NCBI GenBank assembly: GCA_964540015.1
Contig: CAZIKW010000002.1
Span: forward strand, 1-34,172
Direction of reading: 5' to 3'
Origin: an uncultured Methanosarcinales archaeon
GTDB lineage: Archaea > Nanobdellota > Nanobdellia > Woesearchaeales > UBA525
DNA: 34,172 nucleotides
Shown one piece after another: positions 5,586-33,395 of the stretch; position 1 is the first letter of the stretch, and every line of letters begins with the position of its first letter. Under the pieces are notes generated by a model. That model saw only the letters and a list, made by a program, of their open reading frames with translations. It searched no databases and was not told the DNA's origin. The position numbers and the translations under genes were made by a program.

Positions 5586-6436
5586 AGGGCGAGCTTGCAC
5601 CTCTTGCAAATCTCCGGCGAGGGCGTGTTAAGGTCGTACACGGCTGTTCTCGCCGCCGTATATTCTGGAGACCACCAGATATCCGCAAGCGACTGCTGTG
5701 TCGCATTGCCGAGGATTTGCGTCTTTCGCCAATCTTGGCAGCACAAGATAGCGTTGCCATCGACATCGATATGCATGCGCTCGATCGGGCGATGCTGCTC
5801 GCAACCGCGCGTTTTCGGTTTCCACGTGGCATTCGTGTATTTATCGACATTCCCGGCGCGATCGAGGAACCCCCAGTGATGGAATATGATGCCGTTCTGC
5901 TTGCAGTAACTTGTCGCCGCCTCGACCTCTTGCGCAGACGCGGCCGGATGATCGATCATGATAAGGCTGAGATCGCCCACCGACCGACGGAACGCATCGT
6001 CATGGACGGTCTCCTCCAAGCGTCGCCAAGCGCGTTCCCAGTTCAATCCGGGCATAACGGACTCGTACGACGATTTCGTAAAACCGAAGAAGCTCATGCG
6101 GAAATCGTTAATCGCCAGATCCGTTATTTGTTGTCGCTTCTTCTCTGTGAAAGGAGAGAGATTCGTGGATATTTCTATCATCGAGGATGGATATAACTCG
6201 CGTATGGAGCGCACTATCTCTGGGAAGCGCGGATCAAGGAACGGCTCGTTATTGAGATATGGGATAATCCGTTCAATGCCACCGAGTTGCGATAGGATGT
6301 GTTCCAATAGTCCGGCATCCATGAGTTTCGTTCCGTACTCCGCCGCCACATCCGGATGCGGACAGATGGTGCACGCGGCATTGCAATGGCTCGCCGTCTG
6401 GATCTCTATTGCTCGAGGTCGCGGAGGAACGTTCAT
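5582..6436 (-). CDS. Radical SAM enzyme with C-terminal twitch/partial-SPASM-like Cys motif
   Basis: 284 aa. 'SHCNAACTICPH' (CX3CX2C) and 'LNNEPFLD' (GGEP-like). The C terminus has 'C-X14-G-X4-CC' plus 'CKRC'. ATGA overlap with the upstream B12-rSAM stop (6433-6436). Confidence 0.8.
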   Translation of the reverse strand: MNVPPRPRAIEIQTASHCNAACTICPHPDVAAEYGTKLMDAGLLEHILSQLGGIERIIPYLNNEPFLDPRFPEIVRSIRELYPSSMIEISTNLSPFTEKKRQQITDLAINDFRMSFFGFTKSSYESVMPGLNWERAWRRLEETVHDDAFRRSVGDLSLIMIDHPAASAQEVEAATSYCKQNGIIFHHWGFLDRAGNVDKYTNATWKPKTRGCEQHRPIERMHIDVDGNAILCCQDWRKTQILGNATQQSLADIWWSPEYTAARTAVYDLNTPSPEICKRCKLAL

Positions 6437-8055
6437 TCGATCCCCTCCTTGCCCGTGAACACTTCCCGGATAGGTCGGCTACCGCATACTTTCGTGATAT
6501 CATCGACGAGCATGCCCCATATCACCGCGAGTTCAGCGCCATGGTCAGCAAGCACCCTATCGTGTTTCCTGAACGCCTCGAGGATCATTTCCGGGTCTGC
6601 TCCGCTTGCCGCCGCATCATACGCATCGATAAGTGCAGCATACACGAGCTCATCCGTGCGCGCATACATTTCGTCGAAGCGGGCAGCGAGCGCCTTGACC
6701 TCCTCGGTATGCTGCGGGCAAGCGCGTTGCGCGATCGTAGTGAGGAGCCGCCCGCTGACGCAATGATATTCGAGGAAATATCCTTTTGATGTTTCGAAGA
6801 ACGTGCGAACGGCATTGAAGAGCGCTTCTGTATCTGCATGCTTCCAGGAGTAGCCGTAAATCAGATCCCGGTACGTCGTACCCCACACCATGCCGGTGGC
6901 TTTGAGGTCTTCAAGCAGGCGAGAGCCAGGGACAAGCCTGGGCGCCTCGATGAGGACGCCGAGCCGGCACAGCTTCTGGATGGAGTGGAGATACTCGATA
7001 TTGCGGCGGATATCCTTCAAAGGCGCCGTCGGTTCGAACGTGATAAAACCGAGGTGGACATTTACACCGTGCTCGTGTAATGTTGTCCACGTCCTGTCAG
7101 CCATGGACGGGGTAATCATCTTATTGAACGTGACTAGACTATCTTGCGCGTTATTTTCCACACCCAAAAATACCCTGACTAGTCCTGCACGCACCAGCAA
7201 GTCCAGAAGCTCTGGGGAAGGGAACGGGTTACAGCGCAAGTAGACATAGAAATGAATATCGAGCTTCCGTTCAAGCAATTCTTCGCAGATCTGACGTATA
7301 CGTTCATCGTCAAAGGGACCAGACCAGAACATCGGATCATTGAAAATAAAGAGCGTTTTCCCGTACCGTTCCTTGATCTGCTGCACCTCATCAACAAGAT
7401 GCTTCGCGCTGCGCACGGGCCGTCGCGTACCTCTCTGCTGAGCGTGATATATGGGGACATGGCAGAAGCTACAATTGAACATGCAGCCGCGCGACGCCTC
7501 GATATTGACATACCCTACCTTCTCCTTCTCCTCGATATCGCGTGCGGGGAACGGCATATCATCAGGTAGCGTCGCCATCATGCGTTTCCCCGTGTCAACA
7601 ATTTCTCCCGATGGCATACGCCAGAGCCCACCCACACAGTTCGCATCCCACGCCAGTGCCGCATCCATGGAAGCGAGAAGCTCGCACGCCGTCTCTTCCG
7701 GATACCCATACAGGATCCCATCGAGCCATTCCTGTTCCGCGAGAATACCTTGCGCGTTCATGCTCGCGAACGGTCCGCACAAAAAGACACGTTTCACCGC
7801 ACCATGCGCCTTCGCGGCTCGGAGAAGCGGGAGCAACTCCGCGTAATCCTTGAAGTTCGGCTTCGCGATAATGATGTCCGGCGATCCCCGTACGATATTT
7901 TTTGCGCTATCGAGCGCACCGCGTTCAAGGAGACACTGCTCGACAGCATAGTTCGCTTGTCGTAGGAACGCCGCCACATATCCCATCGTCAGGGACGCCG
8001 CCGATTGGGAGTAGAGCGTGCGATAGAACACGAGCTTAACGCGTAACAAGAGCAT
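6433..8055 (-). CDS. B12-binding-domain (class B-like) radical SAM enzyme
   Basis: About 540 aa. The N-terminal ~170 aa form a Rossmann-like region typical of cobalamin-binding rSAMs, followed by 'EASRGCMFNCSFCHV' (CX3CX2C). GGAGGTG lies directly upstream of ATG 8055. The exact start is uncertain (GTG 8058, ATG 8055 or TTG 8049). The 5' end overlaps the GT2 3' end. Confidence 0.85.
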   Translation of the reverse strand: MLLLRVKLVFYRTLYSQSAASLTMGYVAAFLRQANYAVEQCLLERGALDSAKNIVRGSPDIIIAKPNFKDYAELLPLLRAAKAHGAVKRVFLCGPFASMNAQGILAEQEWLDGILYGYPEETACELLASMDAALAWDANCVGGLWRMPSGEIVDTGKRMMATLPDDMPFPARDIEEKEKVGYVNIEASRGCMFNCSFCHVPIYHAQQRGTRRPVRSAKHLVDEVQQIKERYGKTLFIFNDPMFWSGPFDDERIRQICEELLERKLDIHFYVYLRCNPFPSPELLDLLVRAGLVRVFLGVENNAQDSLVTFNKMITPSMADRTWTTLHEHGVNVHLGFITFEPTAPLKDIRRNIEYLHSIQKLCRLGVLIEAPRLVPGSRLLEDLKATGMVWGTTYRDLIYGYSWKHADTEALFNAVRTFFETSKGYFLEYHCVSGRLLTTIAQRACPQHTEEVKALAARFDEMYARTDELVYAALIDAYDAAASGADPEMILEAFRKHDRVLADHGAELAVIWGMLVDDITKVCGSRPIREVFTGKEGIE

Positions 8056-9271
8056 CACCTCCAGGAGTGCGTTGTTTTTTTAGCGATCTACCAGTCAGGG
8101 CACGCCATACGAGGCGACCAAGAGCGTGATACGCCGCGAGGCCATGAATCAGGTAGAAGAGCGGTGCGCCGATAAGCCCGCTCCAAAAGACCGATGATCG
8201 TTTCGCCATCGTTCGCCATGCCATCTCGTTGAGAAGTGGTAAGTAGAGGATAGTGGTGAGGATAGCCAGAGATATTGTTGTTTTTCCCGAAAATACGAAT
8301 GCGGCAACAAGCAAGGTGGGGCCCATAATCCAATAGAGTGCGTGGCTCAGTAATTGCATACTACGCAGAAAGGCTTTCGCTCTATGTCCGTGCTTCGCCG
8401 CAACGATACGGTAATAGCGCGGCGCTTCTAAGGGGCCAAAATACCAATTGCTTTGCTGGAGGAAGAGCCCACGAACCGTTCCTGCGGTTTCTGCTTGGTC
8501 AAAGCAAGGGAGAGGATGGATAGGAATATTCAGAACGTTGAGGGCGAGACCGAAAATCGCATCCTCATTATGCATGTTTTCTCGGAACCCTCCGACGATA
8601 TCGTATACTTCGCGCGTAAAGAACAGACCGTGACCAATACAGTAATTCATGGACTTCCATCGAGTGAACTGATCTAGCGCGTGAGGGATTTCAAAACCCA
8701 CGCTCCAACGATTTTGCCACGCGGCGGCAGAAGCGAGAATAAGACCGCGTATACTCTTTGCGGGATGCAATCCTCGAGAGTAATCTCCGTATTGCTGACA
8801 AACACGAGCTCCTGTGCGAACGAGACCAGCGACATATCGCAACGTTCGCGGGTCCGGTCGGCTATCCGCATTGTACACGCCAAACACGTGTTTTGGAGGT
8901 TTGTTGAGCGTGCGAACCGCATAATTGAGCTGATGCGCCATTTTCGTCCCCGTGCCCGAATAGTGGAGGTGCTTCACTCGCCGATGCCGTCGTGCCAAAG
9001 CCCGGGCGATTGTCAGGGTGGTGATTTTCCCTTTCGGCTCTCGCGCGGTCGTTACCAGAACAATTTTGGCACTTGGGAAGTGCTCAAGAAAATAGGTTAC
9101 CGTTGCCTCTAATCGGGCAGTTTCTTCCAGGCACGGAATAAGTAATGTGCATGCTATCGGCCTGTCAGATGCGTGTTTTTGCGCGAGCCATCGTTTGGTG
9201 CGCCCTATCTTCCACATCCAATGAAGACCAACCGCAAGAAAGCCGACACAGAGGAGAGTGGTGATGATCAT
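8036..9271 (-). CDS. Membrane glycosyltransferase family 2, processive-type (QxxRW)
   Basis: 411 aa. N-terminal TM helix, 'YNADSRPD' (DxD-like), 'NEDAIFG' (ED) and 'WQNRW' (QxxRW motif of processive beta-glycosyltransferases), plus C-terminal TM helices. ATGA overlap with the upstream kinase stop (9268-9271). Confidence 0.8.
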   Translation of the reverse strand: MIITTLLCVGFLAVGLHWMWKIGRTKRWLAQKHASDRPIACTLLIPCLEETARLEATVTYFLEHFPSAKIVLVTTAREPKGKITTLTIARALARRHRRVKHLHYSGTGTKMAHQLNYAVRTLNKPPKHVFGVYNADSRPDPRTLRYVAGLVRTGARVCQQYGDYSRGLHPAKSIRGLILASAAAWQNRWSVGFEIPHALDQFTRWKSMNYCIGHGLFFTREVYDIVGGFRENMHNEDAIFGLALNVLNIPIHPLPCFDQAETAGTVRGLFLQQSNWYFGPLEAPRYYRIVAAKHGHRAKAFLRSMQLLSHALYWIMGPTLLVAAFVFSGKTTISLAILTTILYLPLLNEMAWRTMAKRSSVFWSGLIGAPLFYLIHGLAAYHALGRLVWRALTGRSLKKQRTPGGDALVTR

Positions 9272-9962: not shown

Positions 9963-10766
9963 ATGCCCCACTGGCGAGAACGGCTGCACACCGTCGTGTT
10001 CGAGGCGGACACCACTGCCGGCAAGACATTCGATATCGTCGTTATCGCAAGCATCCTTCTGAGTGTCCTCGCCGTGATGCTCGAGACGGTGCCATCGATA
10101 CGCGATGGGCCGTACGGCCACACCCTCATTCTTGTCGAATGGTCGTTCACGATCCTCTTCACTATCGAGTACCTGCTGCGCCTGATTGCCGTGAAACAGC
10201 CGATCCAGTACGCGCTCAGCTTCTATGGCCTCGTGGATCTCTTCGCGATCCTGCCCACGTATCTGAGCCCCTTAAGCCCAAACGCACCAGCATTCCTCGT
10301 GCTGCGTATGTTGCGCCTGATGCGATTGTTCCGGGTGTTTAAGCTAGGTAAATACGTCCTCGCCGCCCACGCGCTCGGTCACGCGCTACGCGAGAGCCGG
10401 CGGAAGATTCTCGTGTTCCTGCTCGGCGTGATCGCTATTACGACGGTCAGCGGCGCGATGATGTATCTCGCTGAAGGCCAACAACCTGGCTTTGACAGTT
10501 TGCCCGAGAGCATGTACTGGGCGATCGTCACGCTCACGACCGTTGGTTTCGGAGATGTCGTGCCCGTGACCACACTCGGAAAAGTCCTCGCTTCACTCCT
10601 GATGATTTTCGGGTTCGGTGTGATAGCGGTGCCGACAGGCATCGTTTCAGCCGAGCTCGCGCGCGCTGATATGCGCCGCCTCACCACGCAAGCATGTCGT
10701 GCGTGTATGAGTGGCGATCACGCGCATGATGCGGCATTCTGTCGTCGTTGCGGCGAGAAATTGTAA
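9963..10766 (+). CDS. Voltage-gated-type K+ channel (6TM) with C-terminal zinc-ribbon
   Basis: 'TLTTVGFGDV' K+ selectivity filter. S4-like 'LRMLRLMRLFRVFKLGK' with a basic residue every third position. C-terminal 'CRAC...CRRC'. Confidence 0.85.
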   Translation: MPHWRERLHTVVFEADTTAGKTFDIVVIASILLSVLAVMLETVPSIRDGPYGHTLILVEWSFTILFTIEYLLRLIAVKQPIQYALSFYGLVDLFAILPTYLSPLSPNAPAFLVLRMLRLMRLFRVFKLGKYVLAAHALGHALRESRRKILVFLLGVIAITTVSGAMMYLAEGQQPGFDSLPESMYWAIVTLTTVGFGDVVPVTTLGKVLASLLMIFGFGVIAVPTGIVSAELARADMRRLTTQACRACMSGDHAHDAAFCRRCGEKL

Positions 10767-10775
10767 GAAGAAGCA

Positions 10776-11753
10776 TTATACGCGCTTCATCCAGGCGTAG
10801 ACTGACGGCCACGCATCCATATCGATGCGATGTGCTTGGTGCGTGAGCTCGTACGTGCCCGGCGGTACGTTGACGACGGTCGTGAAGGGATCTTCGAGGA
10901 CTTGCTTGAGGAAATCGTTATCTTTCTGCGCGAGAGTATCTTGATCTGCGACGGAATACCACCACAAGCCCGTGCAGATGGAACCGACTTGACGAGCTCG
11001 CGCACCTGTCGTCGGATCTCGTAGCGTTTTTCCTTCGCTCTGACCGATCAAAATCGTGTCGCTTCCTTTATGCTGGAAAATACCAGGGCAGCTGTTGCCG
11101 ACAAATCCGTGGAGCATACCTTGCGCGGCATAAAACGCCGACCACTCAAAGACACCCAGGTCAGTATCGAGGCCATGAGTCTCCACCATTTGTTCAGGGA
11201 AAAAATCCGTAAGATCATCTCGCATCACGAGCTTTCCTGACGGGCATTCGAGCCGGAATACGAATGGCGGCATGCCGTCCGGATATGGGCAAGGAGCATC
11301 CGAGAACTCAAGAGCATTGCGCTCCTTGTTGAGCGCGTAGGAAATGACACGGAACGTCTGACCGTCCGTACGAAGAGCGAATTGATTTCCGCAGTCTTTG
11401 CAAGAGTGATGGAGTGGGAGATCGACAGGGTGCTCTAAAGGAGTGTTCGATTCTACGGCATTCGCGAGTTCGGGCACCCGTCCTGAGTTGCGAATGGAGT
11501 TATGGACACTCTCAGCATCAAGATAGAATCCGTAATCACGGACGTACTTGAACGCCGTTGTCGCTGAAGAACGCAAATGACCGTTCCAATCGATGGGGAT
11601 TTTCCCTTCGCGGATCTGATGGTATAACTGATCGGCGAGTTGGAAAGCAGCAAGATGCTCTTTGTAGTTCGGGCTAACCGAGCGCGAAAGTTTTTCGAGC
11701 TCCGCTTTGGGAAGTTGGCGTAGCTTTTCGACAAGCTCATCCGCGAAGTCCAT
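10776..11753 (-). CDS. Hypothetical protein (no recognisable family)
   Basis: Long ORF with coding-like composition. 'TTATAAAT' (complement of 11779-11786) lies about 26-33 nt upstream of ATG 11753 (MDFADELVEKL...), which favours that start over GTG 11771. Confidence 0.6.
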   Translation of the reverse strand: MDFADELVEKLRQLPKAELEKLSRSVSPNYKEHLAAFQLADQLYHQIREGKIPIDWNGHLRSSATTAFKYVRDYGFYLDAESVHNSIRNSGRVPELANAVESNTPLEHPVDLPLHHSCKDCGNQFALRTDGQTFRVISYALNKERNALEFSDAPCPYPDGMPPFVFRLECPSGKLVMRDDLTDFFPEQMVETHGLDTDLGVFEWSAFYAAQGMLHGFVGNSCPGIFQHKGSDTILIGQSEGKTLRDPTTGARARQVGSICTGLWWYSVADQDTLAQKDNDFLKQVLEDPFTTVVNVPPGTYELTHQAHRIDMDAWPSVYAWMKRV

Positions 11754-11916
11754 ATCGACGATAGAGGTCACGCGTCATTTATAAGGGTTGTTACTGAACA
11801 GGGGTGTCTTTGTTATCGACGGGGCGGCCACGAGTTTCTTCAACGAAAAGACCCACCACGTTTCGTGGCAGTCCACAGTACTTTTCTCCGTGCCGCCCCG
11901 TGTTCAATCTTCACAA

Positions 11917-12261
11917 CTACCCCTGCGGCGTCCAAACAAGCGTCCCTTCGAGCTTTTGCAGCTGACCCTTGCCATTGAAACGGTAACCCCAGAAACTACC
12001 GGCGTTATCGCCTTCAAGCGAACCGAAGCAGATATCACCTTTCACCTTGTGATTGCACAGTATCTTGGTGAATGCTGGATTGTTGTCGAGGTAGTCCATG
12101 TGCTCGGCATGATCCGCATTGAAGGACAACTTGTGCTTTTAGGCGACGTCCTCCTCCTCGTACCACACTTCGCCCTCGTACGCCTGTGCTTTGAACAAGT
12201 CGCTGATGCACTTCTTTGACACCGTGACGGTGTTGACGATATTCTCAATAGACCAGCCCAT
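11917..12261 (-). pseudogene. ORF interrupted by an in-frame TAA (40 codons + stop + 73 codons); pseudogene, assembly error, or two small genes
   Basis: ATG 12261-12259 is preceded by 'GAGAGGTGGGGG'. I checked the reading frame codon by codon down to TAA (12141-12139). The same frame continues into track ORF 11917..12129, whose 'M' is a TTG codon. Confidence 0.35.
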
Positions 12262-25171: not shown

Positions 25172-25192
25172 TTAGTGTATACTACACACTAA
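25172..25192. promoter_or_regulatory. 21-bp palindrome TTAGTGT-N7-ACACTAA, candidate NrtR operator
   Basis: Perfect 7-bp inverted arms (25172-25178 and 25186-25192) sit between the two TATA-like boxes of the NAD operon promoter, and an NrtR-like regulator is encoded at 32715. Confidence 0.45.
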
Positions 25193-25245
25193 ATAGAACC
25201 AAACCACACGAAATTACCGAACAGTAAGTGTACAAACAACACAAA

Positions 25246-25566
25246 ATGAGGCGAACACCAATGGCCATCACCCCCACCCAAGCAAAACGCCAAGCCACCC
25301 CCGACGAACAGACCCTCAAGAATCTCGAAAAGCGCATCGACGAAACACTCGTGCGCGCCCTGCGCTCGGGCACGACACCCACCTATGACACGGAAGGCAT
25401 GGACGTCGCCACCCGCACCGCACTCGCCCGCCGCTATCAAACGGCAGGATGGGACGTACGCCACATCAATGATCAACACGACGGCAACTACCTGACGTTC
25501 AAGGAACAGCAAGAGTACTACGACCCGCGAGACAACTTCGGCGGTTACAACTTCATGGACCGGTGA
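25246..25566 (+). CDS. Small hypothetical protein, first gene of the NAD operon
   Basis: About 106 aa (alternative starts GTG 25228 and ATG 25261). Its stop overlaps the GTG 25563 / ATG 25572 start region of pncB. No motif recognised. Confidence 0.45.
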   Translation: MRRTPMAITPTQAKRQATPDEQTLKNLEKRIDETLVRALRSGTTPTYDTEGMDVATRTALARRYQTAGWDVRHINDQHDGNYLTFKEQQEYYDPRDNFGGYNFMDR

Positions 25567-25571
25567 ACCAC

Positions 25572-27011
25572 ATGACCCCCTCCCCACTCCTCACCGACCT
25601 GTACCAGCTCACGATGATGGCTGCGTACATCGACAGCGGCAAGGAAAAAGACCGCTCCACGTTCGACCTCTTCGTTCGACGACTGCCCAAGGACTGGGGC
25701 TACCTCGTCGCGGCGGGAGTCGATGAAGCGGTTGATATCGCAACGAATCTCAAATTCAGCGAAGACGACATCTCCTACCTCCGCTCCACAGAGATCTTCA
25801 AAGAACATCATCTCGAGTACTTCCGCAATTTCAAATTCAGCGGTGAGATCTCGGCAATAGCGGAAGGAACCGCTCTCACCGCCGGTACACCACTGGTGCG
25901 CGTCACGGCGGATCGCGCCCAAGCGCAACTTCTCGAAAGCATCCTTCTCAACACCATAGGATACCAAACCATGGTCGCGTCGAAAGCCAGCCGCGTCGTA
26001 GAAGCGGCGCAAGGGCGCGATGTCATCGATTTCGGCATGCGCCGAGCGCACGGCCACGAAGCGGCGATGTACGCTTCTCGCGCCGCACAAATCGCCGGAT
26101 GCACCGCCACAAGCAATGTGTACGTCGGCAAAATGTACGGCACCCCCATCGGCGGCACGATGGCGCACAGTTTCGTCATGGCATTCCCAGACGAGCTCAC
26201 CGCATTCCGTGCCTTCGTAAAGACGTACACGGACAAACCAACGCTCCTTGTGGACACGTACAACACCAAACGCGGTGTCGCGAACGCCATCATTGTCGCC
26301 AAAGAACTCGCTCAACAAGGAGGCCGCTTAGGCGCTATCCGACTCGACAGCGGCGACCTCGAAGCGCTGGCCAAAGAAGCGCGAGCGGATCTTGACAAGG
26401 CAGGATTATACGACGTCAAGATTGTCGCGAGCGGGGACCTGAACGAATACAAGGTCAAGCGCCTCATCGAAAGCGGCGCACCCATCGACGCATTCGGCGT
26501 CGGCACGGAAATGCTCACCGGCAAACCTGACGCGGCGCTGAGCATCGTCTACAAGCTCGCGGAAGATCCGGCGGGCGGTAAACTGAAACTCGCCGAAGGC
26601 AAGCGCACGTGGCCGGGAAAGAAGCAGGTATGGCGCATCGCGAGCGAACCGGACATCGCTCAACCAACGCGTTCGCTCTACGATCTTCTCGCACTCGAAA
26701 GCGAGGGAATGCCGACAGCGGAGCCGTGCACGTTCGCCACACCGCTCCTGACACAAGTGGTACGCGGCGGTTGGCGCATCACGCCCGCAAGCACGCTTTC
26801 AGAAGCGCGCAAGCGCTGTGCGTCACAGCGCGAACTCTTGCCCGCGAGCTCCTATCGCGAGATGGTAGCGACGCCGTACGAACTGCGCCAATCGCAAGGA
26901 CTCGTCGATCTCACCACCGCGCTCGCAGCCGAACACGAAAACGGCCACGAGCTCACGGCGCAAGAACGCTTCGAGCGGACCATCAAAGCATGGAAGGAGG
27001 GAACCGTATGA
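25572..27011 (+). CDS. pncB: Nicotinate phosphoribosyltransferase
   Basis: N-terminal 'LLTDLYQLTMMAAY' NAPRTase signature and 'GTMAHSFVM'. About 480 aa. GTG 25563 is an in-frame alternative start. Confidence 0.9.
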   Translation: MTPSPLLTDLYQLTMMAAYIDSGKEKDRSTFDLFVRRLPKDWGYLVAAGVDEAVDIATNLKFSEDDISYLRSTEIFKEHHLEYFRNFKFSGEISAIAEGTALTAGTPLVRVTADRAQAQLLESILLNTIGYQTMVASKASRVVEAAQGRDVIDFGMRRAHGHEAAMYASRAAQIAGCTATSNVYVGKMYGTPIGGTMAHSFVMAFPDELTAFRAFVKTYTDKPTLLVDTYNTKRGVANAIIVAKELAQQGGRLGAIRLDSGDLEALAKEARADLDKAGLYDVKIVASGDLNEYKVKRLIESGAPIDAFGVGTEMLTGKPDAALSIVYKLAEDPAGGKLKLAEGKRTWPGKKQVWRIASEPDIAQPTRSLYDLLALESEGMPTAEPCTFATPLLTQVVRGGWRITPASTLSEARKRCASQRELLPASSYREMVATPYELRQSQGLVDLTTALAAEHENGHELTAQERFERTIKAWKEGTV

Positions 27012-27277
27012 CGGAAAATAAAAGCACCATCTATCAAGTCTTCACGGAGGGCGGCACCGAAATATACATCCCACCGAAGTTCCTCGGATACGCAACCGGA
27101 AACCCTGTAGATATCAAACAGTACTACGACAGTGAAAAATTCTACAGTATCGATGTGCAACCCTTAATCGTACCACACATCACACACGAGATAGCGTTGC
27201 AACGCCAGAGCGCCGCTTTGGAATTGCGGACGCTTGAGACGCGCATCCAGGAACTAAAAAAAGAGGTACGACGATGA
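27008..27277 (+). CDS. Small hypothetical protein (89 aa), ATGA-coupled between pncB and pncA
   Basis: ATG 27008 overlaps the pncB stop, and its own stop overlaps ATG 27274. It is the C-terminal part of track ORF 26609..27277. Sequence MTENKSTIYQVF...; the C-terminal segment looks coiled-coil-like. Confidence 0.5.
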   Translation: MTENKSTIYQVFTEGGTEIYIPPKFLGYATGNPVDIKQYYDSEKFYSIDVQPLIVPHITHEIALQRQSAALELRTLETRIQELKKEVRR

Positions 27278-27921
27278 CCAACATCATATTTTGGAACGTC
27301 GATACGCAATACGATTTCATGCGTGACGACGAACGCTACAAAGGAAAGCTCGCAGTCCCGGGCGCGAAAGACATCGAACCGAATCTCGAACGCCTCACCG
27401 CCGCAGCGCGCCAGCACGGCATCAAGGTCATCAACACCGCCGACTGGCACACATTCGCGAGTAAAGAGTTCAGCCAAACACCGGATTACGCCAAGACCTT
27501 CCCACCGCACTGCATCATGCACACACCGGGCGCGAAGTACGTGCCAGCGACGGAACCCCTCAACCCCTACGTCGTCGACTGGCGCGCAAAAGAGATCGAT
27601 GAACGCGAAATCCATGGACGACGAAACATCGTCATCTACAAGGACGCGTTTGACGCGTTTGAAGGAAACCCACACACGAGCGACATCGTACAAAAACTCA
27701 AACCCGACCACGCGGTCGTCTACGGCGTCGCGACCAACTACTGCGTGCAGTACGCGGTGCAAGGATTACTCAAGCGGGGCATCGCGGTCACGGTAGCATC
27801 CGACGCGATCAAAGAGATCCCTAACTGCGACATCTCCTCCTTCATCGATACCGAATGGCGCACGAAAGGCGTGCACCTCGACACAACAGCGGGCATCGAA
27901 CGCATGCTCGCGCACAGGTGA
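27274..27921 (+). CDS. pncA: Nicotinamidase (isochorismatase family)
   Basis: 'FWNVDTQYDF' (catalytic Asp), 'IYKDAFDAF' (Lys) and 'GVATNYCV' (Cys), which together make the triad pattern of nicotinamidase/pyrazinamidase. Confidence 0.85.
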   Translation: MTNIIFWNVDTQYDFMRDDERYKGKLAVPGAKDIEPNLERLTAAARQHGIKVINTADWHTFASKEFSQTPDYAKTFPPHCIMHTPGAKYVPATEPLNPYVVDWRAKEIDEREIHGRRNIVIYKDAFDAFEGNPHTSDIVQKLKPDHAVVYGVATNYCVQYAVQGLLKRGIAVTVASDAIKEIPNCDISSFIDTEWRTKGVHLDTTAGIERMLAHR

Positions 27922-27926
27922 TACCT

Positions 27927-28820
27927 ATGAACCGCATACGACTACCCTACATGGATCCAAGCAGAGTTAGCAGAGAAATCGGCGATTTCGTCGTCGACGC
28001 AGTGACGAAACGCGGTTCGACTGGCTGCGCGATCGGCCTCTCCGGCGGTGTCGACAGCACGACCGTTGCCGCGATCATCAAGAAAGCGTTCGATGAGAAG
28101 AAGAAAGAAGGCGTAGAGCTCGAACTCGTCGGCTACATCTTGCCGAGCTCAACGAATGACCCGGCCGACACGAAAGACGGCACCGCGGTCGCAGAGCGCT
28201 TAGGCATCCGCTACGAGACGCACGCGCTCGAACCGATCCTCGGCGCCTACGCGTCGACGAACAAAGAAGCGATGGAGAACAAGTACGACCGCGGTAACCT
28301 CACCTCACGCGTACGCGCGACCGTGCTCAACACGAAAGCGGCGACAGAACACAAAGTGCTCGCAGGCACAGGCAACCGCGACGAGGATTACGGCATCGGG
28401 TACTATACCCTCTTCGGAGACGGCGCGGTGCACATCAGCCCGATCGGCGGGTTAAGCAAACGGCTCGTGCGAGAGATGGCATCGCATCTCGGCTTTAGCG
28501 ACCTCGCATACCGAGAACCCACGGCGGGGCTCGAACCCGGCCAAACGGATTTCAAAGACCTCGGCTATAAGTACGACATCGTCGAGCTCGTGAGCGAAGG
28601 ATTGGATCAAGGGTTCACACCAACGCAACTCGCCAGCCACGAGCAGGTCGCGCCCTTCATCGTGCAGCAGCAGATCGAATACGCGAGACGATACGGCACA
28701 TCGAAATTCATGCGACCGCTCGACGCGATCGAGGATATCGTGCGGCGCAAGGAAACCGCGAAATATAAAGCTGAACTCATTAGCCCACCGACTCCGCAGA
28801 TCACCCTGGAGTACCGATGA
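27927..28820 (+). CDS. nadE: NH3-dependent NAD+ synthetase
   Basis: 'GLSGGVDSTTVAAI' PP-loop. About 298 aa from ATG 27927. The track's upstream extension from 27855 overlaps pncA. Confidence 0.9.
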   Translation: MNRIRLPYMDPSRVSREIGDFVVDAVTKRGSTGCAIGLSGGVDSTTVAAIIKKAFDEKKKEGVELELVGYILPSSTNDPADTKDGTAVAERLGIRYETHALEPILGAYASTNKEAMENKYDRGNLTSRVRATVLNTKAATEHKVLAGTGNRDEDYGIGYYTLFGDGAVHISPIGGLSKRLVREMASHLGFSDLAYREPTAGLEPGQTDFKDLGYKYDIVELVSEGLDQGFTPTQLASHEQVAPFIVQQQIEYARRYGTSKFMRPLDAIEDIVRRKETAKYKAELISPPTPQITLEYR

Positions 28821-29314
28821 ACCGCACACGCATGACGATGAAGGAATGGGGAGCGCACCGGCGCGCGACGTATGAAGGGCCGCTCGCGGCAACAGACCTC
28901 ATTATCGAGTACCTGCATCCGACGCAAGGAGACGGCATCATCCTTATCGACCGAGGATACGAGCCGCTGGGTCTCGCGTTGCCGGGAGGATTCGCTGAGC
29001 GGATGGCATTGCCGAAAAATGCGGTGAAGGAAGCGAAGGAAGAGACCTCACTTGACGTCTTCCTCTACGAACCGCATCGGCCGTTGTGCGTATTTAGCGA
29101 CCTTGAGCGCGATCCGCGCGAACATGTCATGACACTCGTCTACACAGCGCGCGGCACAGGCGTGCTCAAAGCAGGCGATGACGCGAAACGCGTGTACCAT
29201 TATCCATTGGAGACACTCGCGCAGATACCTGTCGAGCGGTTCGCGTTTCCCGACCACAAAGAAGCAATCGACCTGTACCTCGCATGGCACAAGCGACGAA
29301 CGGGAGGCGACTAG
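28817..29314 (+). CDS. Nudix hydrolase (probable ADP-ribose pyrophosphatase-like) with non-canonical Nudix box
   Basis: 'LPGGFAERMALPKNAVKEAKEETSL' resembles GX5EX7REUXEEXGU, but it has K in place of R and lacks the first Glu at the canonical spacing. ATGA overlap with the nadE stop. Confidence 0.7.
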   Translation: MNRTRMTMKEWGAHRRATYEGPLAATDLIIEYLHPTQGDGIILIDRGYEPLGLALPGGFAERMALPKNAVKEAKEETSLDVFLYEPHRPLCVFSDLERDPREHVMTLVYTARGTGVLKAGDDAKRVYHYPLETLAQIPVERFAFPDHKEAIDLYLAWHKRRTGGD

Positions 29315-29914
29315 ATGCGTTACGGCACGCTTGGCATCATCGGCAAGTTCCAACCGCCAACCATCGGCCATCAATCGCTCCTCGAAGCGGTAGCGAACGC
29401 ATCCAGTCGCATGCGCATCGGCATCGGCAGCGTGAACCGTTACGATGCGCACCGGCCATTCTACCCGGATGAAGTGGAGGATATGCTCACGCTCGCCCTC
29501 AAAGAGACAAGCACACCATACGACATCGTGCGCATCCCCGACTATGGACACAAGACCGGGAATTCCGACGCGTGGGTCGAGCATATGCGACGAGAGTTCC
29601 GCGGCGTCGACGCGCTCGTGAGCGGCAATCCGTATGTCGAGCAATTGCTCGCGCCGCATATGCGCATCGTATCACTGGACGAAATCATCCCATTCGAGCA
29701 TCGTGTAATAGCATCATCGACATCCGTGCGTCAAGCAATCGCGACGAGCGCCGATTGGAAACGATATCTGCAATCAGGTGTTGCCCGATATATCGACGAG
29801 CATACCATCGACGAACGCATCCGCCGAGAGTTCGGCGAAGAATTGCGCTCAACAAACCCCCCACCTATCACGGTCGAGGAAGAAAGGAGACGAATACTCG
29901 GAGCGGCCTCATGA
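29315..29914 (+). CDS. nadM: Nicotinamide-nucleotide adenylyltransferase, archaeal NadM type
   Basis: 'GIIGKFQPPTIGH' matches the G-[RK]-F-Q-P-x-H/T-x-G-H cytidylyltransferase-type motif of archaeal NMNAT. It starts immediately after the Nudix stop. Confidence 0.8.
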   Translation: MRYGTLGIIGKFQPPTIGHQSLLEAVANASSRMRIGIGSVNRYDAHRPFYPDEVEDMLTLALKETSTPYDIVRIPDYGHKTGNSDAWVEHMRREFRGVDALVSGNPYVEQLLAPHMRIVSLDEIIPFEHRVIASSTSVRQAIATSADWKRYLQSGVARYIDEHTIDERIRREFGEELRSTNPPPITVEEERRRILGAAS

Positions 29915-30786
29915 AATACGACACCTTCAGCATTCTCGCCGGTAGCGAGGTATGCAACGCCCGATGCCCCTTTTGCATCTCAAAGATGACACCACCCAAC
30001 GGCGTCACGATGAAGGAGCCGCCCGTGAATTGGAGAAACTTCCGCATCGCGGCAAGCCTCGCGGAACGGCTTGATGTCACGACGGCCATGATCACCGGCA
30101 AGGGTGAGCCAACGCTCTTTCCGGAGCAAGTCACGCGCTATCTCGACGAGCTCAAGAACTATCGCATCCCGATCAAAGAATTGCAAACCAATGGCATCCT
30201 TATCGCGCAGCATCCGGAGAAATATGATGCGCATCTCGATCATTGGTACGAACGCGACCTCGCGACCATCGCCATCTCCGTCGTCCATCATGAAGCGGAA
30301 CGAAACCGAGAGATCTACCTGCCAAACCGCAAAGAGTACATCGATCTTCCCAAGTTGATCGGAAAACTCCACGACAAGAAGTTCAGCGTCCGTCTCGCGA
30401 CCGTCATGGTCAAAGGATATATCGATACGCCGCAAAGCGTCGACGAAATGATTGCGTTCGCGCAGAAGAATGGCGTGGAGCAATTGACGCTCAGACCCGT
30501 GAACGCGCCGGGCGAGAGCCGCGACAGTGGCGTGCTGCAGTGGACGAAGGATCACGTACTCGAGCCTGCGCAGCGCGAAAGCATCCACCAGCATCTCGAG
30601 AACCGTGGCACATTACTGCACAAGCTCCCCTATGGCGCTGCCATCTACGATGTCGACGGCCAGAACGTCTGCCTCACGAATTGCCTCACGCACGATCCGA
30701 CAGCCGAGGACGTCCGTCAATTGATCTTCTTCCCCGACGGCCATCTCCGCTACGATTGGCAATACTCAGGAGCGATACTCTTATGA
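29911..30786 (+). CDS. Radical SAM enzyme (291 aa) of unknown function inside the NAD operon
   Basis: 'SEVCNARCPFCIS' (CX3CX2C) at residues ~15-22, 'ITGKGEPTLF' (GGEP-like) and 'LQTNGILI'. ATGA overlaps at both ends (29911-29914 and 30783-30786). Confidence 0.8.
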   Translation: MKYDTFSILAGSEVCNARCPFCISKMTPPNGVTMKEPPVNWRNFRIAASLAERLDVTTAMITGKGEPTLFPEQVTRYLDELKNYRIPIKELQTNGILIAQHPEKYDAHLDHWYERDLATIAISVVHHEAERNREIYLPNRKEYIDLPKLIGKLHDKKFSVRLATVMVKGYIDTPQSVDEMIAFAQKNGVEQLTLRPVNAPGESRDSGVLQWTKDHVLEPAQRESIHQHLENRGTLLHKLPYGAAIYDVDGQNVCLTNCLTHDPTAEDVRQLIFFPDGHLRYDWQYSGAILL

Positions 30787-31838
30787 CGCGAAGCAATTTA
30801 GAATCCGAAAAGAGAGACAGTGCCATGACCAAACGATACGAAGCGATCCTTGTGGGGGGTCACCTTGGGGATTCGCTCGGCGGCCCAGTAGAGACCTGGT
30901 CCACAGCGGAAATCGAACGGCATTACGGACGCATCGATGACCTTATCGCAGCGACGCTCTACCGCTCTAACGATGGGACTATCATCCCAAGTCACCAAGC
31001 AGCAAATAATTGGCATGCGCAACAACGGCCTGGCGAGCCAAGCGACGACACCATCCTGACACTCGCGGTAGCGCGATCGCTCGTCGATTACGGATACGAT
31101 CTTAACGCTATGGCGCGCGAGCATATCGCAGTCATAGAGCGTCGTCGAAAGCCTGACGGGAGCATTGCTGGCGGTTTCGGTAAGACGACACTGTATGCGA
31201 TCGAACGCCTCGCCAAGGGAGTTTCTCCGCACGAAAGCGGGGTGATCGGCATCGGAAACGCACCACCGATGAAAATGGCCCCTATCGGATTATACGCACA
31301 TGCGACAAGGAGTTATGATGTCAGTCTCGCGTTCGCGCGCGCAGTAGGAACGATGACACACGACCACACACCTTCTATCGCAGCAGGCGTCACACAAGCG
31401 CACGCGATTCACGAGCTGCTCAATGGTAGCGAACGACACGAGTTCCTCGAGGGTATCATGCGCGTAACCCGAGCGGAAGAACAGCGACGAAAGGGAGAGG
31501 ACGCCGAATCCCTCTCTGAACGCCTCACATGGGTCGTCGAGCACCAGGATGCGGATATCGAGGATGCGCTTGGAACCTTGCACAACGACGGGCGAGCGCT
31601 CTGTTCATATCCGTTCACGATCTTCATGCTGCAAAAGCATTGGGATGAACCACTTACAGGCCTCATCGCGACCGTGAATGCGGGAGGAGACGCGGACACG
31701 AACGCATCCATGTACGGCGCTCTCGCAGCCGCGCGCCACGGACGATTCTGGCCTGATGCTTGGGAGAAACAACTCGAAGAAGGATCGCAATGCGTCATGC
31801 TCGCAAGGGAGCTGGCAAAGAGAGGGAGAGATCTATGA
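30783..31838 (+). CDS. ADP-ribosylglycohydrolase (ARH/DraG family)
   Basis: 'GGHLGDSLGGPVE' and 'GGDADTNASMYGALAAA' ARH signatures. ATG 30783 is ATGA-coupled, and ATG 30825 is an in-frame alternative. Confidence 0.85.
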   Translation: MTRSNLESEKRDSAMTKRYEAILVGGHLGDSLGGPVETWSTAEIERHYGRIDDLIAATLYRSNDGTIIPSHQAANNWHAQQRPGEPSDDTILTLAVARSLVDYGYDLNAMAREHIAVIERRRKPDGSIAGGFGKTTLYAIERLAKGVSPHESGVIGIGNAPPMKMAPIGLYAHATRSYDVSLAFARAVGTMTHDHTPSIAAGVTQAHAIHELLNGSERHEFLEGIMRVTRAEEQRRKGEDAESLSERLTWVVEHQDADIEDALGTLHNDGRALCSYPFTIFMLQKHWDEPLTGLIATVNAGGDADTNASMYGALAAARHGRFWPDAWEKQLEEGSQCVMLARELAKRGRDL

Positions 31839-32659
31839 ACGTCCTCGTCATCTACAAGAAAAGCCAATACTCGTTCTATCGCGTCTCTCCCGAAGAAAGC
31901 GTTCGGGCGTTCGCGCAGAGCGATGATCCCGACGCTCAACAGTGGCGCAAAGACCATGTCGTGCACGAAACGTCGCTCAAGCACGTCATCGCAACGCTGG
32001 AGGAGCTCTGCATTACCTTCGATATGATGCATCGTGCGCGGATGGTGGATACGTCGAAGTACGATCTCGTCATCGCCGTCGGCGGAGATGGGACCGTGCT
32101 CGATGCGGGCCATCGTGTGCTGGACACGCCGGTGCTCGGCGTGAACTCGAATCCCGGACCGAGCATCGGGCATTACTGCGCTTGCACGGCCGAGGATTTC
32201 CGTGAAACACTTGATAATCTCGATACACTCCCTCGTAATCGTTTTCCACGCATCGAAGCGGTCATCGACGGGAAAAAGATCCCTGAACTCGCGCTCAACG
32301 AAGCCATGTTCGCGCACCAGAACTTTGTATCGACGACATCCTACAGACTCAACGGTGAACGCCATCGGGACTCAGGGATCGTCGCATGCGCTGCGGGAGG
32401 GAGCACCGCATTCATGAAATTCCAAGGAGGAGAGATCATGCAATTGGATGATGACCGCATCCAGTACAAACTGCACGCCAAAGCCATGAAGACACACTAC
32501 ACCAAAGAGCTGCATATCCGATCACTCACCCGCGAAGGCGTTGTAGCCATCGACGGTGAGCATACCTGCTACCCACTCAGTCTCGGGCAGGAGCTCGTGC
32601 TGCGCCCTGGTCATCCGATTACCATCATCGGCAATGTGAGAGAGCGGTACGGGCAGTGA
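31835..32659 (+). CDS. nadK: NAD kinase
   Basis: 'LVIAVGGDGTVLDAG' GGDGT motif and 'NEAMF'. About 274 aa. ATGA overlap with the ARH stop. Confidence 0.85.
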   Translation: MNVLVIYKKSQYSFYRVSPEESVRAFAQSDDPDAQQWRKDHVVHETSLKHVIATLEELCITFDMMHRARMVDTSKYDLVIAVGGDGTVLDAGHRVLDTPVLGVNSNPGPSIGHYCACTAEDFRETLDNLDTLPRNRFPRIEAVIDGKKIPELALNEAMFAHQNFVSTTSYRLNGERHRDSGIVACAAGGSTAFMKFQGGEIMQLDDDRIQYKLHAKAMKTHYTKELHIRSLTREGVVAIDGEHTCYPLSLGQELVLRPGHPITIIGNVRERYGQ

Positions 32660-32661
32660 GG

Positions 32662-32682
32662 TTCGTGTAGCCTAAGCACAAA
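32662..32682. promoter_or_regulatory. Degenerate copy of the palindrome (TTCGTGT-N7-GCACAAA) upstream of the NrtR-like gene
   Basis: It matches the 25172 site at 6/7 and 5/7 positions in the two arms with identical 7-nt spacing, about 33 nt upstream of ATG 32715. Confidence 0.25.
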
Positions 32683-32714: not shown

Positions 32715-33395
32715 ATGAAAGGAGCCCCGTACGATCCGAAAAGCGATATCTGGGACCAACGACGCCCCGCCGTAGCGGTCGATGTCGTGCTCCTCTCCAT
32801 CCTCGACGGTCAGCTCCAAATAGCGCTCATCCAACGACAGGACGAACCGTACTTCGGCAAGTACGCGCTTCCTGGCCGTTTCGTGCGCTACGATGAACCT
32901 ATCGAAGTGACGGGGAAGAAAGCGCTCGAAACGAAAGGGAATATCAAGACGGAAGGGATCTATCTCGAACAGCTCGCGACGTTCGGGCAGAACCTGATCC
33001 GCGACACGCGCATCCGCACGATTAGCGTCGTCTACTACGCCCTCGTCCCAAAAGACGTCATCTCGAAGCAAGCTGGGAACGCGTTCCATTGGTTCTCAAC
33101 CGACAAGCTGCCTCCGCTCGCGTTTGATCACAAGGACATCATCATTTCCGCTATCGACCGTATCCGCGCGCGTCTCTTGCGCACCGATATCGTCTTCCAT
33201 TTGCTGCCCGAGGAATTCACCCTCTCGGAATTGCAGCGTACGTGCGAGGTCATCCTGGGCAACGAACTCGACAAACGAAATTTCCGCAAGAAAACCGCGG
33301 AAGTGTACGACCTGAAGGACCTCAAACGGGACCGTCGCATCGGAGCGCACCGTCCCGCACGCCTGTACCGTTTCGTCAAGCTACGTGACGATTAA
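32715..33395 (+). CDS. nrtR: NrtR-like Nudix-related transcriptional regulator (degenerate Nudix domain + C-terminal wHTH)
   Basis: 'LPGRFVRYDEPIEVTGKKALETKG' is a degraded Nudix box. 'LAFDHKDIIISAIDRIRARL' and 'LLPEEFTLSELQRTCEVILGNELDKRNFRKK' match the characteristic C-terminal NrtR wHTH segment. Confidence 0.75.
   Translation: MKGAPYDPKSDIWDQRRPAVAVDVVLLSILDGQLQIALIQRQDEPYFGKYALPGRFVRYDEPIEVTGKKALETKGNIKTEGIYLEQLATFGQNLIRDTRIRTISVVYYALVPKDVISKQAGNAFHWFSTDKLPPLAFDHKDIIISAIDRIRARLLRTDIVFHLLPEEFTLSELQRTCEVILGNELDKRNFRKKTAEVYDLKDLKRDRRIGAHRPARLYRFVKLRDD

Follow-up and report, generated by a model that had tools for sequence, protein, structure and literature searches.

We report here that a radical S-adenosylmethionine (SAM) enzyme is encoded inside a nicotinamide adenine dinucleotide (NAD) operon in DNA from an uncultured Methanosarcinales archaeon, which the GTDB lineage places in the Woesearchaeales. 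The stretch analysed, referred to below as the window, comprises 34,172 nucleotides (nt) of contig CAZIKW010000002.1, and reading its sequence together with the list of open reading frames (ORFs) places a 291-amino-acid (aa) single-cluster radical SAM protein, hereafter rSAM, at 29911-30786 and a 351-aa ADP-ribosylglycohydrolase (ARH) at 30783-31838. The presence of rSAM in an NAD operon is far from chance, because the same rSAM family recurs in the NAD clusters of dozens of unrelated genomes. To our knowledge, no known step of canonical NAD biosynthesis, salvage or regulation uses radical chemistry. We are highly confident that rSAM belongs to the ADP-ribose-responsive NrtR regulon for NAD homeostasis, and as a whole our data are best explained, tentatively, by an NrtR-controlled rSAM that acts on a phosphorylated NAD-related small molecule.

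The genes orfL-pncB-orfX-pncA-nadE-nudix-nadM-rSAM-ARH-nadK follow one another in a single operon, and nrtR comes next after a gap of 55 nt. A preliminary description of this DNA had rSAM and ARH embedded by ATGA coupling between nadM and nadK, and the coordinates and all three junctions are confirmed in the sequence: the stop codon of the nadM-like gene (TGA, 29912-29914) overlaps the ATG of rSAM (29911-29913; junction 29911-29914), the stop codon of rSAM (30784-30786) overlaps the ATG of ARH (30783-30785; junction 30783-30786), and that of ARH (31836-31838), a gene with an alternative in-frame start at 30825, overlaps the ATG of the nadK-like gene (31835-31837; junction 31835-31838). The names nadM and nadK for the genes that flank the rSAM-ARH pair are plausible, if weakly scored. 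Upstream of the operon lies a predicted NrtR operator that is a perfect 21-bp palindrome (TTAGTGTATACTACACACTAA, 25172-25192), and a predicted tandem site with two mismatches (25225-25245) stands directly before the first ORF. Because rSAM is ATGA-coupled within one operon headed by these two predicted operators, its repression would be lifted along with that of the Preiss-Handler salvage enzymes once free ADP-ribose signals NAD consumption.

The gene neighbourhood of the family was examined by tblastn with the window proteins in about ±7-10 kb of DNA around each rSAM match, with ORFs clustered by BLAST and the clusters named from the window proteins and from Pfam and NCBIfam scans of representatives. 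The sample consisted of 30 loci from species-representative genomes (Nanoarchaeota, Woesearchaeota, Pacearchaeota, Methanosarcinales bins, Acidobacteriota, Planctomycetota, Chloroflexi, Gammaproteobacteria, Clostridia and Gemmatimonadota), 80 metagenome loci and 52 viral contigs. Genes for pncB, pncA, nadE, Nudix, nadM, nadK-like and NrtR proteins surround rSAM in most of the archaeal and several of the bacterial loci. Forty-three unique non-viral loci have at least 3 kb of flank on each side, and neighbours were counted within 6 kb of rSAM in these: nadE and a cluster that mixes NrtR regulators with Nudix hydrolases are each found in 23 of the 43, followed by nadK (22), pncB (19), pncA (16), NadR (12), NadA (11) and PnuC (8), while the immediate neighbours of rSAM vary between nadE, NrtR and nadK. 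The preliminary description had asked for such an analysis of co-occurrence, with the concern that the family might lie mostly outside NAD contexts; it lies mostly inside them, with at least one NAD gene nearby in 32 of the 43 cellular loci (DPANN archaea, candidate phyla radiation (CPR) bacteria, Planctomycetota and Chloroflexi) and among NAD genes in several phages as well. Precomputed Pfam annotation of independent contigs agrees with this context. In the parcubacterial locus L031, NrtR-NadK stands divergent to rSAM-NadA-NMNAT; in L170, NrtR is followed by NAPRT-PncA-NadE-NadM/Nudix-rSAM and further genes; and in L172, from an aenigmarchaeote, the order is PncA-NadM/Nudix-x-NAPRT-rSAM-C3, where C3 is a pyridoxal 5'-phosphate (PLP) enzyme considered below.

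The predicted operators carry the regulatory part of our argument. A palindrome of 21 bp around a GT-N7-AC core has been described as the NrtR operator (Rodionov et al. 2008, PMC2330246), and the motif found here is TTAGTGT-N7-ACACTAA, of which the core TAGTGT-N7-ACACTA was searched. The window holds three sites where 0.24 are expected, and none of 100 shuffles reaches three. Throughout the 1.33 Mb of non-viral loci there are 40 exact copies of the core, and 79 if up to one mismatch is allowed (0-1 and 2-6, respectively, in shuffles); the 0.79 Mb of viral loci contain none. Nearly all sites are intergenic and lie just upstream of pncB, pncA, nadE, NadA, PnuC, nrtR and, repeatedly, rSAM itself, such that operators are found both upstream of the window operon and, conserved, upstream of orthologues. 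At least eleven loci (L012, L013, L023, L028, L031, L037, L048, L060, L064, L079 and L104) have a predicted operator directly upstream of the rSAM start, at a distance of 10-166 nt, and two of these, L023 and L037, are operator-preceded rSAM-C3 pairs with no other NAD gene nearby. Two boxes likewise precede an operon in the Chloroflexi loci L006 and L054 that starts with a HemN-like radical SAM gene, continues with rSAM and has no other NAD gene, and in L169, a stand-alone archaeal rSAM, a symmetric variant with two mismatches (TATTGT-N7-ACAATA) lies 12 nt upstream. Because operators sit directly upstream of rSAM genes across loci, NrtR is predicted to control the family directly, in archaea as well as in bacteria. 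The third site of the window, a weak predicted operator with three mismatches at 32662-32682, lies 33 nt upstream of nrtR and probably serves nrtR autoregulation; comparable sites abut the nrtR starts of L015, L018, L020, L027, L028, L081 and L083. One type of operator is common to archaea and bacteria, as seen in the DPANN, CPR, Planctomycetota and Chloroflexi loci. These regulons resemble those described previously (PMC2330246) in the regulator, which joins a Nudix domain to a winged helix, in the operator type and in their content of pncA, pncB, nadE, nadM, Nudix, pnuC-nadR and nadA, and they differ in that no radical SAM gene is mentioned there and in that the present ones belong to DPANN archaea, CPR bacteria and other uncultured phyla.

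Judged from its sequence, rSAM is an intact radical SAM enzyme with a single [4Fe-4S] cluster; its family is compact and unnamed. Among 5.8 billion proteins searched, 1800 homologues were found, of which the best 120 are 56-96% identical to rSAM, mostly 56-63%, and 283-363 aa long, nearly all of them about 291 aa; an exhaustive HMMER search of cluster representatives gave about 300 clusters (50% identity) at E<=1e-30. Between bacterial and archaeal species representatives the protein is still about 50-64% identical. In an alignment of 25 members with a mean column identity of 67%, the CX3CX2C motif (C15-N-A-R-C19-P-F-C22, in the CNARCPFC of residues 15-22) is invariant, GKGEP (residues 63-67) is conserved, and the only invariant cysteines are C15, C19, C22 and C254, therefore there is no auxiliary cluster. 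The preliminary description had noted the length, both motifs and the lack of a further cysteine cluster, and it was right on each. Seven basic residues (K25, R42, K64, R133, R161, R269 and R280) are also invariant. The protein ends at residue 291 and has no cysteine-rich SPASM/twitch domain at its C-terminus. Superfamily membership follows from the CX3CX2C motif, a score for PF04055 above the gathering threshold (32.3 bits against 29.5), a glycine-rich SAM-binding motif and the fold: the AlphaFold2 model (predicted local distance difference test (pLDDT) 84.4) shows the alternating beta/alpha elements of a TIM-barrel-type fold. Foldseek gave 95 matches in the PDB at E<=0.001, the best 50 of which are all radical SAM enzymes, with MoaA first (template modelling (TM) score 0.70, E 4e-10), then SuiB and viperin-like enzymes (TM 0.64), and with BlsE and SkfB among the matches.

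Databases call the homologues 'radical SAM protein' or, by pipeline (JGI), 'MoaA' or 'PflA', yet in the NCBIfam scan rSAM reached no curated cut-off. Its best match, MoaA (TIGR02666), scored 35.0 bits against 284.05, viperin/pVip (NF038283) 25.3 against 180, and the activases PflA (TIGR02493) and NrdG (TIGR02495) 22.5 against 231.75 and 21.5 against 131.15; the assignment to a hidden Markov model (HMM) family that the preliminary description had called for hence ends without any known family threshold being reached. PADLOC returned a weak core match to pVip (29.6 bits) and nothing else, PHROGs generic radical SAM families only, and searches of PDB sequences found no match with the single protein and only viperin with a profile (E 0.014). 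No glycyl-radical enzyme was seen in any neighbourhood examined. On these scores and this context, rSAM is not a known activase or maturase. With MoaA, the GTP 3',8-cyclase (PDB 1tv7/2fb2; TMq 0.67-0.70), it shares an N-terminal CX3CX2C, a length of about 300 aa and the likeness to a radical enzyme for a small molecule, namely a nucleotide ribose. It differs in lacking the second, C-terminal, GTP-binding [4Fe-4S] cluster of MoaA with its three further cysteines, C254 being the only conserved cysteine outside the N-terminal motif, and in its NAD gene context without moa genes nearby. Viperin and pVip are like rSAM single-cluster proteins of about 290 aa (TM 0.64 to 9dfn and 9dgw) that are also found in viruses, but the matches span only the common core (rSAM residues 13-185); the family has signatures of its own (C-[IV]-S-K-M-T and a C-terminal FFPDGHLRYDW), is predicted to be regulated with NAD salvage and is not found in defence islands. 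The loose resemblance to viperin and MoaA that the preliminary description had pointed out is thus there, at TM 0.64-0.70, and is as generic as it was said to be.

The most common gene immediately downstream of rSAM, in 30 loci, encodes C3, a fold-type-I PLP enzyme of 310-360 aa that resembles HisC and CobD and that is found within 6 kb of rSAM in 17 of the 43 well-flanked loci. C3 has a weak Pfam match to Aminotran_1_2, its profile finds HisC (E 2e-8) and CobD (E 1.5e-7) in the PDB, and its PLP-binding residues (Asn, Asp, Tyr, S-x-S-K, Arg) are invariant. The AlphaFold2 model of C3 (pLDDT 93.6) matches CobD, HisC and aspartate aminotransferase equally well, at TM scores of about 0.6, which does not narrow down the substrate. 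The substrates of HisC and CobD are phosphate esters. The rSAM and C3 genes overlap by 4 nt in L170, L172 and L173, and one natural protein of 666 aa (P0134) is an rSAM-C3 fusion. There are more than 1000 homologues of C3, mostly from DPANN archaea and CPR bacteria, none of them characterised. Small radical SAM genes beside genes for PLP aminotransferases are familiar from the sugar-nucleotide pathways of DesII/DesI, BtrN/BtrS and BlsE/BlsH. Compared by description, the rSAM-C3 pair shares with these a small radical SAM gene next to a fold-type-I aminotransferase and, potentially, a radical oxidation or dehydration followed by transamination, and BlsE (7vob) is among the Foldseek matches. The known pairs lie in antibiotic clusters and act on nucleoside diphosphate sugars or nucleoside sugars, whereas here control is predicted to be by NrtR, no membership at the sequence level was found, and the PLP gene is missing from about 60% of the loci, the window included.

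Further radical SAM proteins join these genes. In the L170 NAD operon, rSAM-C3 is followed by a HemN-like radical SAM gene and by a small MoaA-like one, C17, and the resulting four-gene cassette (HemN-like, the 291-aa rSAM, C3 and C17) is found at 10001-14005 of L170, a probable archaeon, and in the Chloroflexi loci L006 (6543-10551) and L054 (420-2704), at identities of 48% and 41%. One Woesearchaeota assembly carries rSAM-C3 (L009) and HemN-like-C17 (L176) on different contigs. The HemN-like family has 1100 homologues, and its best NCBIfam match, 'STM4012 family', is below cut-off. Many members end in a Nudix domain whose Nudix box is intact, and some carry a complete NrtR (Nudix plus winged helix), as in P0468, P0454 and P0494 (about 660 aa), in P0465, P0505 and P0507 (about 725 aa) and in the loci L174 and L177; the fusion of an enzyme to NrtR, a regulator, is reminiscent of NadR. 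The cultured Anaerobacterium chartisolvens has an NrtR-PncA-NAPRT-Macro-HemN::Nudix operon, and another bacterium has NrtR-PncA-HemN::Nudix. Because HemN-like proteins fused to Nudix or NrtR occur in NrtR-PncA operons, the link to NAD and ADP-ribose genes extends to more than one family of radical SAM enzymes. In the Pacearchaeota locus L030, the 291-aa rSAM is reduced to a remnant of 19 residues (8001-8057) and C17 (9558-10388) stands between NAPRT and NrtR, which suggests the replacement of one radical SAM protein by the other.

The family extends to viruses. In 7 of 34 viral loci (among them L118, L125, L126, L139, L145 and L157) rSAM lies among pncA, pncB, nadE or nadD, and viral homologues only 27% identical to rSAM still keep the family motifs in an NAD context. 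A deep phage branch (L145, L157, L144, L153, L158 and L164; 24-29% identity) retains C-x-SKMT, TGKGEP, ELQTNG and DGH-Y-W and is without a 13-residue insert (EKNREIYLPxxK) that is conserved in the cellular members. The carriers are contigs of uncultured phages, most of them very large; cultured phages yielded no homologue, and the sole matches in the GenBank phage records searched are two uncultured entries of 735 kb (LR756501 and LR756503; 25% identity). Recurrent neighbours in the viral loci, judged by eye, are ordinary phage genes for replication and nucleotide metabolism and offer no clue to function. Phages are known to carry NAD salvage genes (NadV with NadM or NadR), presumably countering NAD depletion (Iyer et al. 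2022, PMC9503650); the viral loci described here differ in that they encode the deamidated route (PncA, PncB, sometimes NadD and NadE) along with rSAM, and a radical SAM enzyme is not mentioned in that survey of viral NAD-ADP-ribose systems. An unrelated radical SAM gene and NAPRT, far apart, have been described in jumbo phages (PMC5468394).

With regard to the reaction, we propose with caution that rSAM cleaves SAM reductively and that the resulting 5'-deoxyadenosyl radical takes a hydrogen atom from a small molecule that is phosphorylated and related to NAD. As a ribosyl or nucleotide species, this substrate would fall in the class of nicotinic acid mononucleotide (NaMN), nicotinic acid adenine dinucleotide (NaAD), NAD(P) or ADP-ribose, and its turnover would give an oxidised or dehydrated product (keto or ene). 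The substrates put forward in the preliminary description, pyridine nucleotides or derivatives of ADP-ribose, are plausible candidates. We are led to a phosphorylated NAD-related substrate by the conserved basic residues, the nucleotide-acting relatives in fold, a PLP partner from the phosphate-ester branch and a sister radical SAM enzyme that is fused to Nudix. MoaA and viperin-like enzymes act on the riboses of nucleoside triphosphates. In about 40% of the genomes the product may be handed to C3, encoded immediately downstream, and transaminated, in keeping with the logic of the known pairs of radical SAM enzyme and aminotransferase. In the genome of the window, where there is no C3 within 34 kb, rSAM may act alone or with a partner encoded elsewhere.

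Several observations weigh against an NrtR-controlled rSAM that acts on such a molecule. The likeness in fold to MoaA and viperin (TM 0.6-0.7 at 14-19% identity) is of a kind general to the superfamily, and all matches of rSAM to curated HMMs are far below cut-off. Eleven of the 43 well-flanked loci (Acidobacteriota, some Planctomycetota and Chloroflexi) and 27 of the 34 viral loci have no NAD gene nearby. The canonical NAD steps are all represented in these operons, which leaves no obvious gap for rSAM to fill. A search of the 34-kb window for the PLP partner, NadA, PnuC, NadR, a HemN-like radical SAM protein and a small MoaA-like one found none of them, so that the usual partner C3 is absent from the very operon under study. 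Finally, the operator sites are predictions from sequence, the ORF caller was crude, and the gene labels derive from BLAST clusters, one of which ('NrtR/Nud') mixes regulators with Nudix hydrolases.

The main alternative would be a role for rSAM in an unrecognised anaerobic route to a pyridine precursor (nicotinate, quinolinate or an imine or enamine building block), with C3, the HemN-like protein and C17 in the same route where they are present and with the product entering through NAPRT (PncB) or NadA. Such a role would suit ring formation, the only chemically hard step of NAD metabolism, since hard chemistry is what radical SAM enzymes are normally recruited for. It would also fit with NadA near rSAM in 11 of the 43 loci with no nadB or nadC recognised beside it (rSAM-NadA-NMNAT in L031, rSAM-NadA-nadD in L060), with a predicted NrtR box between rSAM and NadA, with NAPRT as a constant companion, and with a cassette of three radical SAM enzymes and a PLP enzyme that looks biosynthetic, in the NAD operon of L170 and under NrtR boxes in L006 and L054; an aminotransferase is a natural means of introducing the ring nitrogen. 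Yet many near-complete NAD operons, such as those of the window, L016, L020, L025, L027 and L172, have rSAM with neither NadA nor the cassette, phages carry only rSAM with pncA or pncB, the absence of nadB and nadC was judged within ±8 kb only, and rSAM has no auxiliary cluster to accept an electron in an oxidation, and we consider this route rather unlikely. We regard it as improbable that rSAM instead returns a damaged or modified pyridine dinucleotide or ADP-ribose derivative to a salvageable form, for example hydrated or isomerised NAD(P)H or a derivative of NAD or ADP-ribose made in defence, which phages would counter with rSAM beside PncA and PncB. No known NAD damage needs radical chemistry, the stoichiometric cost in SAM would be high, a PLP aminotransferase is ill-suited as a partner for simple reversal, and PADLOC adds nothing beyond its weak pVip core match of 29.6 bits. 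These objections are set against the occurrence of rSAM beside genes for the universal last part of the pathway (nadD, nadE, nadK) in bacteria without salvage genes in the vicinity (NadR-like-nadD-nadK-rSAM in L066/L067; nadK-rSAM in L088, L090, L091, L097, L098, L100 and L107), its presence in phages that rebuild NAD, its company of ADP-ribose-processing domains (ARH, Macro, Nudix) and its predicted control by ADP-ribose through NrtR.

An activity on proteins or peptides, with rSAM as activase or maturase for a protein of the operon or for a small peptide encoded in it, seems very improbable to us. SuiB and SkfB, which mature ribosomally synthesised and post-translationally modified peptides (RiPPs), are among the Foldseek matches, PflA and NrdG give weak NCBIfam matches of 21-22 bits, and the window operon does contain two small ORFs (25246-25566 and 27008-27277). 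However, rSAM has neither a SPASM/twitch cysteine cluster nor a RiPP recognition element domain, no glycyl-radical enzyme lies nearby, the conserved and sometimes fused partner is a small-molecule PLP enzyme, and the immediate neighbours of rSAM change from locus to locus. The reading of the small ORFs as precursors for a peptide maturase was rejected, with no homologue of orfX (27008-27277) in any locus. It is scarcely credible, lastly, that the pipeline names are correct and that rSAM is a MoaA or a pyruvate formate-lyase activase lying in the operon by chance. JGI does call many homologues 'molybdenum cofactor biosynthesis enzyme MoaA' or 'pyruvate-formate lyase-activating enzyme', and MoaA is the top Foldseek match, but the TIGR02666 and TIGR02493 scores given above are a small part of what those families require, the second cluster of MoaA is absent, no moa or pfl gene was seen in any neighbourhood, and across phyla both synteny and operators place the family with NAD genes.

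The preliminary description had further suggested that rSAM and ARH form a functional pair, and this did not hold. ARH (30783-31838, + strand) is a member of the ARH/DraG superfamily (PF03747, 179.7 bits against 26.2, E 1.3e-52) whose closest solved structures are the Thermus ADP-ribosylglycohydrolase 2cwc, MJ1187 (1t5j), ARH3 and DraG and whose metal motif GGDADT is intact and aligns with that of 2cwc. It misses the cut-off of the DraG equivalog TIGR02662 (63.9 bits against 337.05), and it has no nitrogenase context. Because an ARH lies within 6 kb of rSAM in only 5 of the 43 loci, where C3 is the usual partner, and is never its immediate downstream neighbour in other loci, the adjacency of the two genes is a local arrangement rather than a module, and the conserved pair was rejected as a candidate. 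ARH is a generic superfamily member and an ordinary, separate part of the regulon. In Streptomyces, a draG/ARH gene adjoining nrtR has been reported as the part of the regulon that deals with ADP-ribose (PMC2330246). ARH would free ADP-ribose, the NrtR ligand and a Nudix substrate, from ADP-ribosylated substrates.

The remaining genes of the window operon all lie, like rSAM, on the + strand. The leader ORF orfL (25246-25566, 106 aa), whose stop overlaps the GTG start of pncB (GTGA), had no homologue in other loci, a weak negative since the query was off by one base. It is followed by pncB (25563-27011), a nicotinate phosphoribosyltransferase with the Pfam domains NAPRTase_N, NAPRTase and NAPRTase_C that exceeds the cut-offs of NF006696 (504.4 bits against 503) and NF009131 (495 against 330). 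The 89-aa orfX (27008-27277) has ATGA overlaps with pncB and pncA; L170 has an unrelated ORF of 35 aa in the equivalent position, between NAPRT and PncA. The pncA-like gene (27274-27921) encodes an isochorismatase-fold hydrolase (nicotinamidase; PF00857, E 3.8e-20; NF008623 at 46 bits, below cut-off), 45-55% identical counterparts of which adjoin pncB in other loci. Next come nadE (27927-28820), an NAD synthetase of the NH3 type (PF02540, E 2.5e-49; TIGR00552, 160.7 bits against 63.65), and a Nudix hydrolase (28817-29314; PF00293, E 9e-7) that is probably an ADP-ribose pyrophosphatase and that is often fused to NadM in homologous loci, with NadM-Nudix fusions preceding rSAM in L170 and L172. 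The nadM-like gene (29315-29914) encodes a divergent, archaeal-type adenylyltransferase for nicotinamide mononucleotide (NMN) or NaMN with scores below cut-off (NF002243, 70.1 bits; TIGR01527, 51.9 bits; PF01467, 20.6 against 21). Beyond rSAM and ARH, the divergent NAD kinase-like protein (31835-32659) passes PF01513 (38.5 bits against 25.5) and scores 20-41 bits, below cut-off, with the NCBIfam NAD kinase equivalogs; its homologues in L031 match both NAD_kinase and NAD_kinase_C. The last gene, nrtR (32715-33395), encodes the ADP-ribose-responsive Nudix-related transcriptional repressor (PF21906, E 2.3e-23, plus a Nudix domain; NF050029 at 132.8 bits, below cut-off). Elsewhere in the window are PAC2, TrmB-like and DUF7343 genes, which point to an archaeal genome, and two further, unrelated radical SAM genes, one at 2650-3846 (+, 398 aa) and one at 6433-8058 (-, 541 aa) that adjoins a family-2 glycosyltransferase (8036-9271); neither protein is homologous to the HemN-like or C17 proteins.

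Some genes of the other loci deserve a record of their own. A divergent NadA (quinolinate synthase; 213 bits against a cut-off of 294) with its own predicted NrtR box occurs in CPR and DPANN NAD operons (L031 7981-9156, L060, L085, L096, L111, L053 and L043), and nadB and nadC were not recognised within the fetched ±7-8 kb of loci with NadA and rSAM. A protein of about 285 aa, c16 (L043 943-1815), precedes NadA in some archaeal loci. CPR NAD operons repeatedly encode a protein of about 390 aa (L085 6538-7722, also L064, L068, L096 and L111) that has no NCBIfam match and that by eye consists of an N-terminal part like nucleoside deoxyribosyltransferases and a C-terminal Nudix part. On the aenigmarchaeal contig L172, rSAM-C3 precedes, in the same orientation, the alpha and beta subunit genes of a thiamine-diphosphate-dependent 2-oxoacid dehydrogenase E1 (10070-12107), and an E1_dh gene is also near the L170 operon (L170 1-533), which may be coincidence. 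Pairs of Band_7 (SPFH) genes lie directly downstream of rSAM in L034-L036 (8069-9966), on a Sungbacteria contig rich in toxin-antitoxin genes, and downstream of the HemN::Nudix operon of Anaerobacterium (L174 12102-14059).

The operon type and ARH are already known. Our full-text literature searches found no paper in which NrtR, NAD salvage, PncA/PncB or a HemN-Nudix fusion is connected to a radical SAM enzyme, and the rSAM family, its PLP partner C3 and the HemN-like fusions to Nudix or NrtR appear to be undescribed as members of an NAD regulon. It is possible, though we hold it with some doubt, that NAD metabolism has a so far undescribed radical branch with rSAM at its core and with C3, the HemN-like protein and C17 as optional partners. 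Such a branch would be regulated by ADP-ribose and common to DPANN archaea, CPR bacteria, several phyla rich in anaerobes and large phages, and it would either synthesise a pyridine precursor anaerobically or turn a nucleotide derived from NAD or ADP-ribose into a new metabolite or cofactor. There are old, never-resolved reports of a nicotinate route in clostridia that does not use NadAB, for which the branch could be a candidate if it does build a precursor.

The biosynthesis, salvage and regulation of NAD are regarded as essentially complete maps. A strongly conserved radical SAM enzyme that is, by prediction, co-transcribed and co-regulated with salvage genes in minimal genomes, where little is kept without need, implies that either a reaction on an NAD-related metabolite or a source of NAD precursors has so far gone unrecognised. 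The question is a testable one, given the fusion proteins, the predicted operators and a cultured organism, Anaerobacterium chartisolvens, that carries the HemN-like::Nudix protein. Either outcome would change the metabolic reconstructions of CPR and DPANN symbionts and add a new type of reaction to the radical SAM superfamily, and may reveal a further means by which phages restore NAD during infection.

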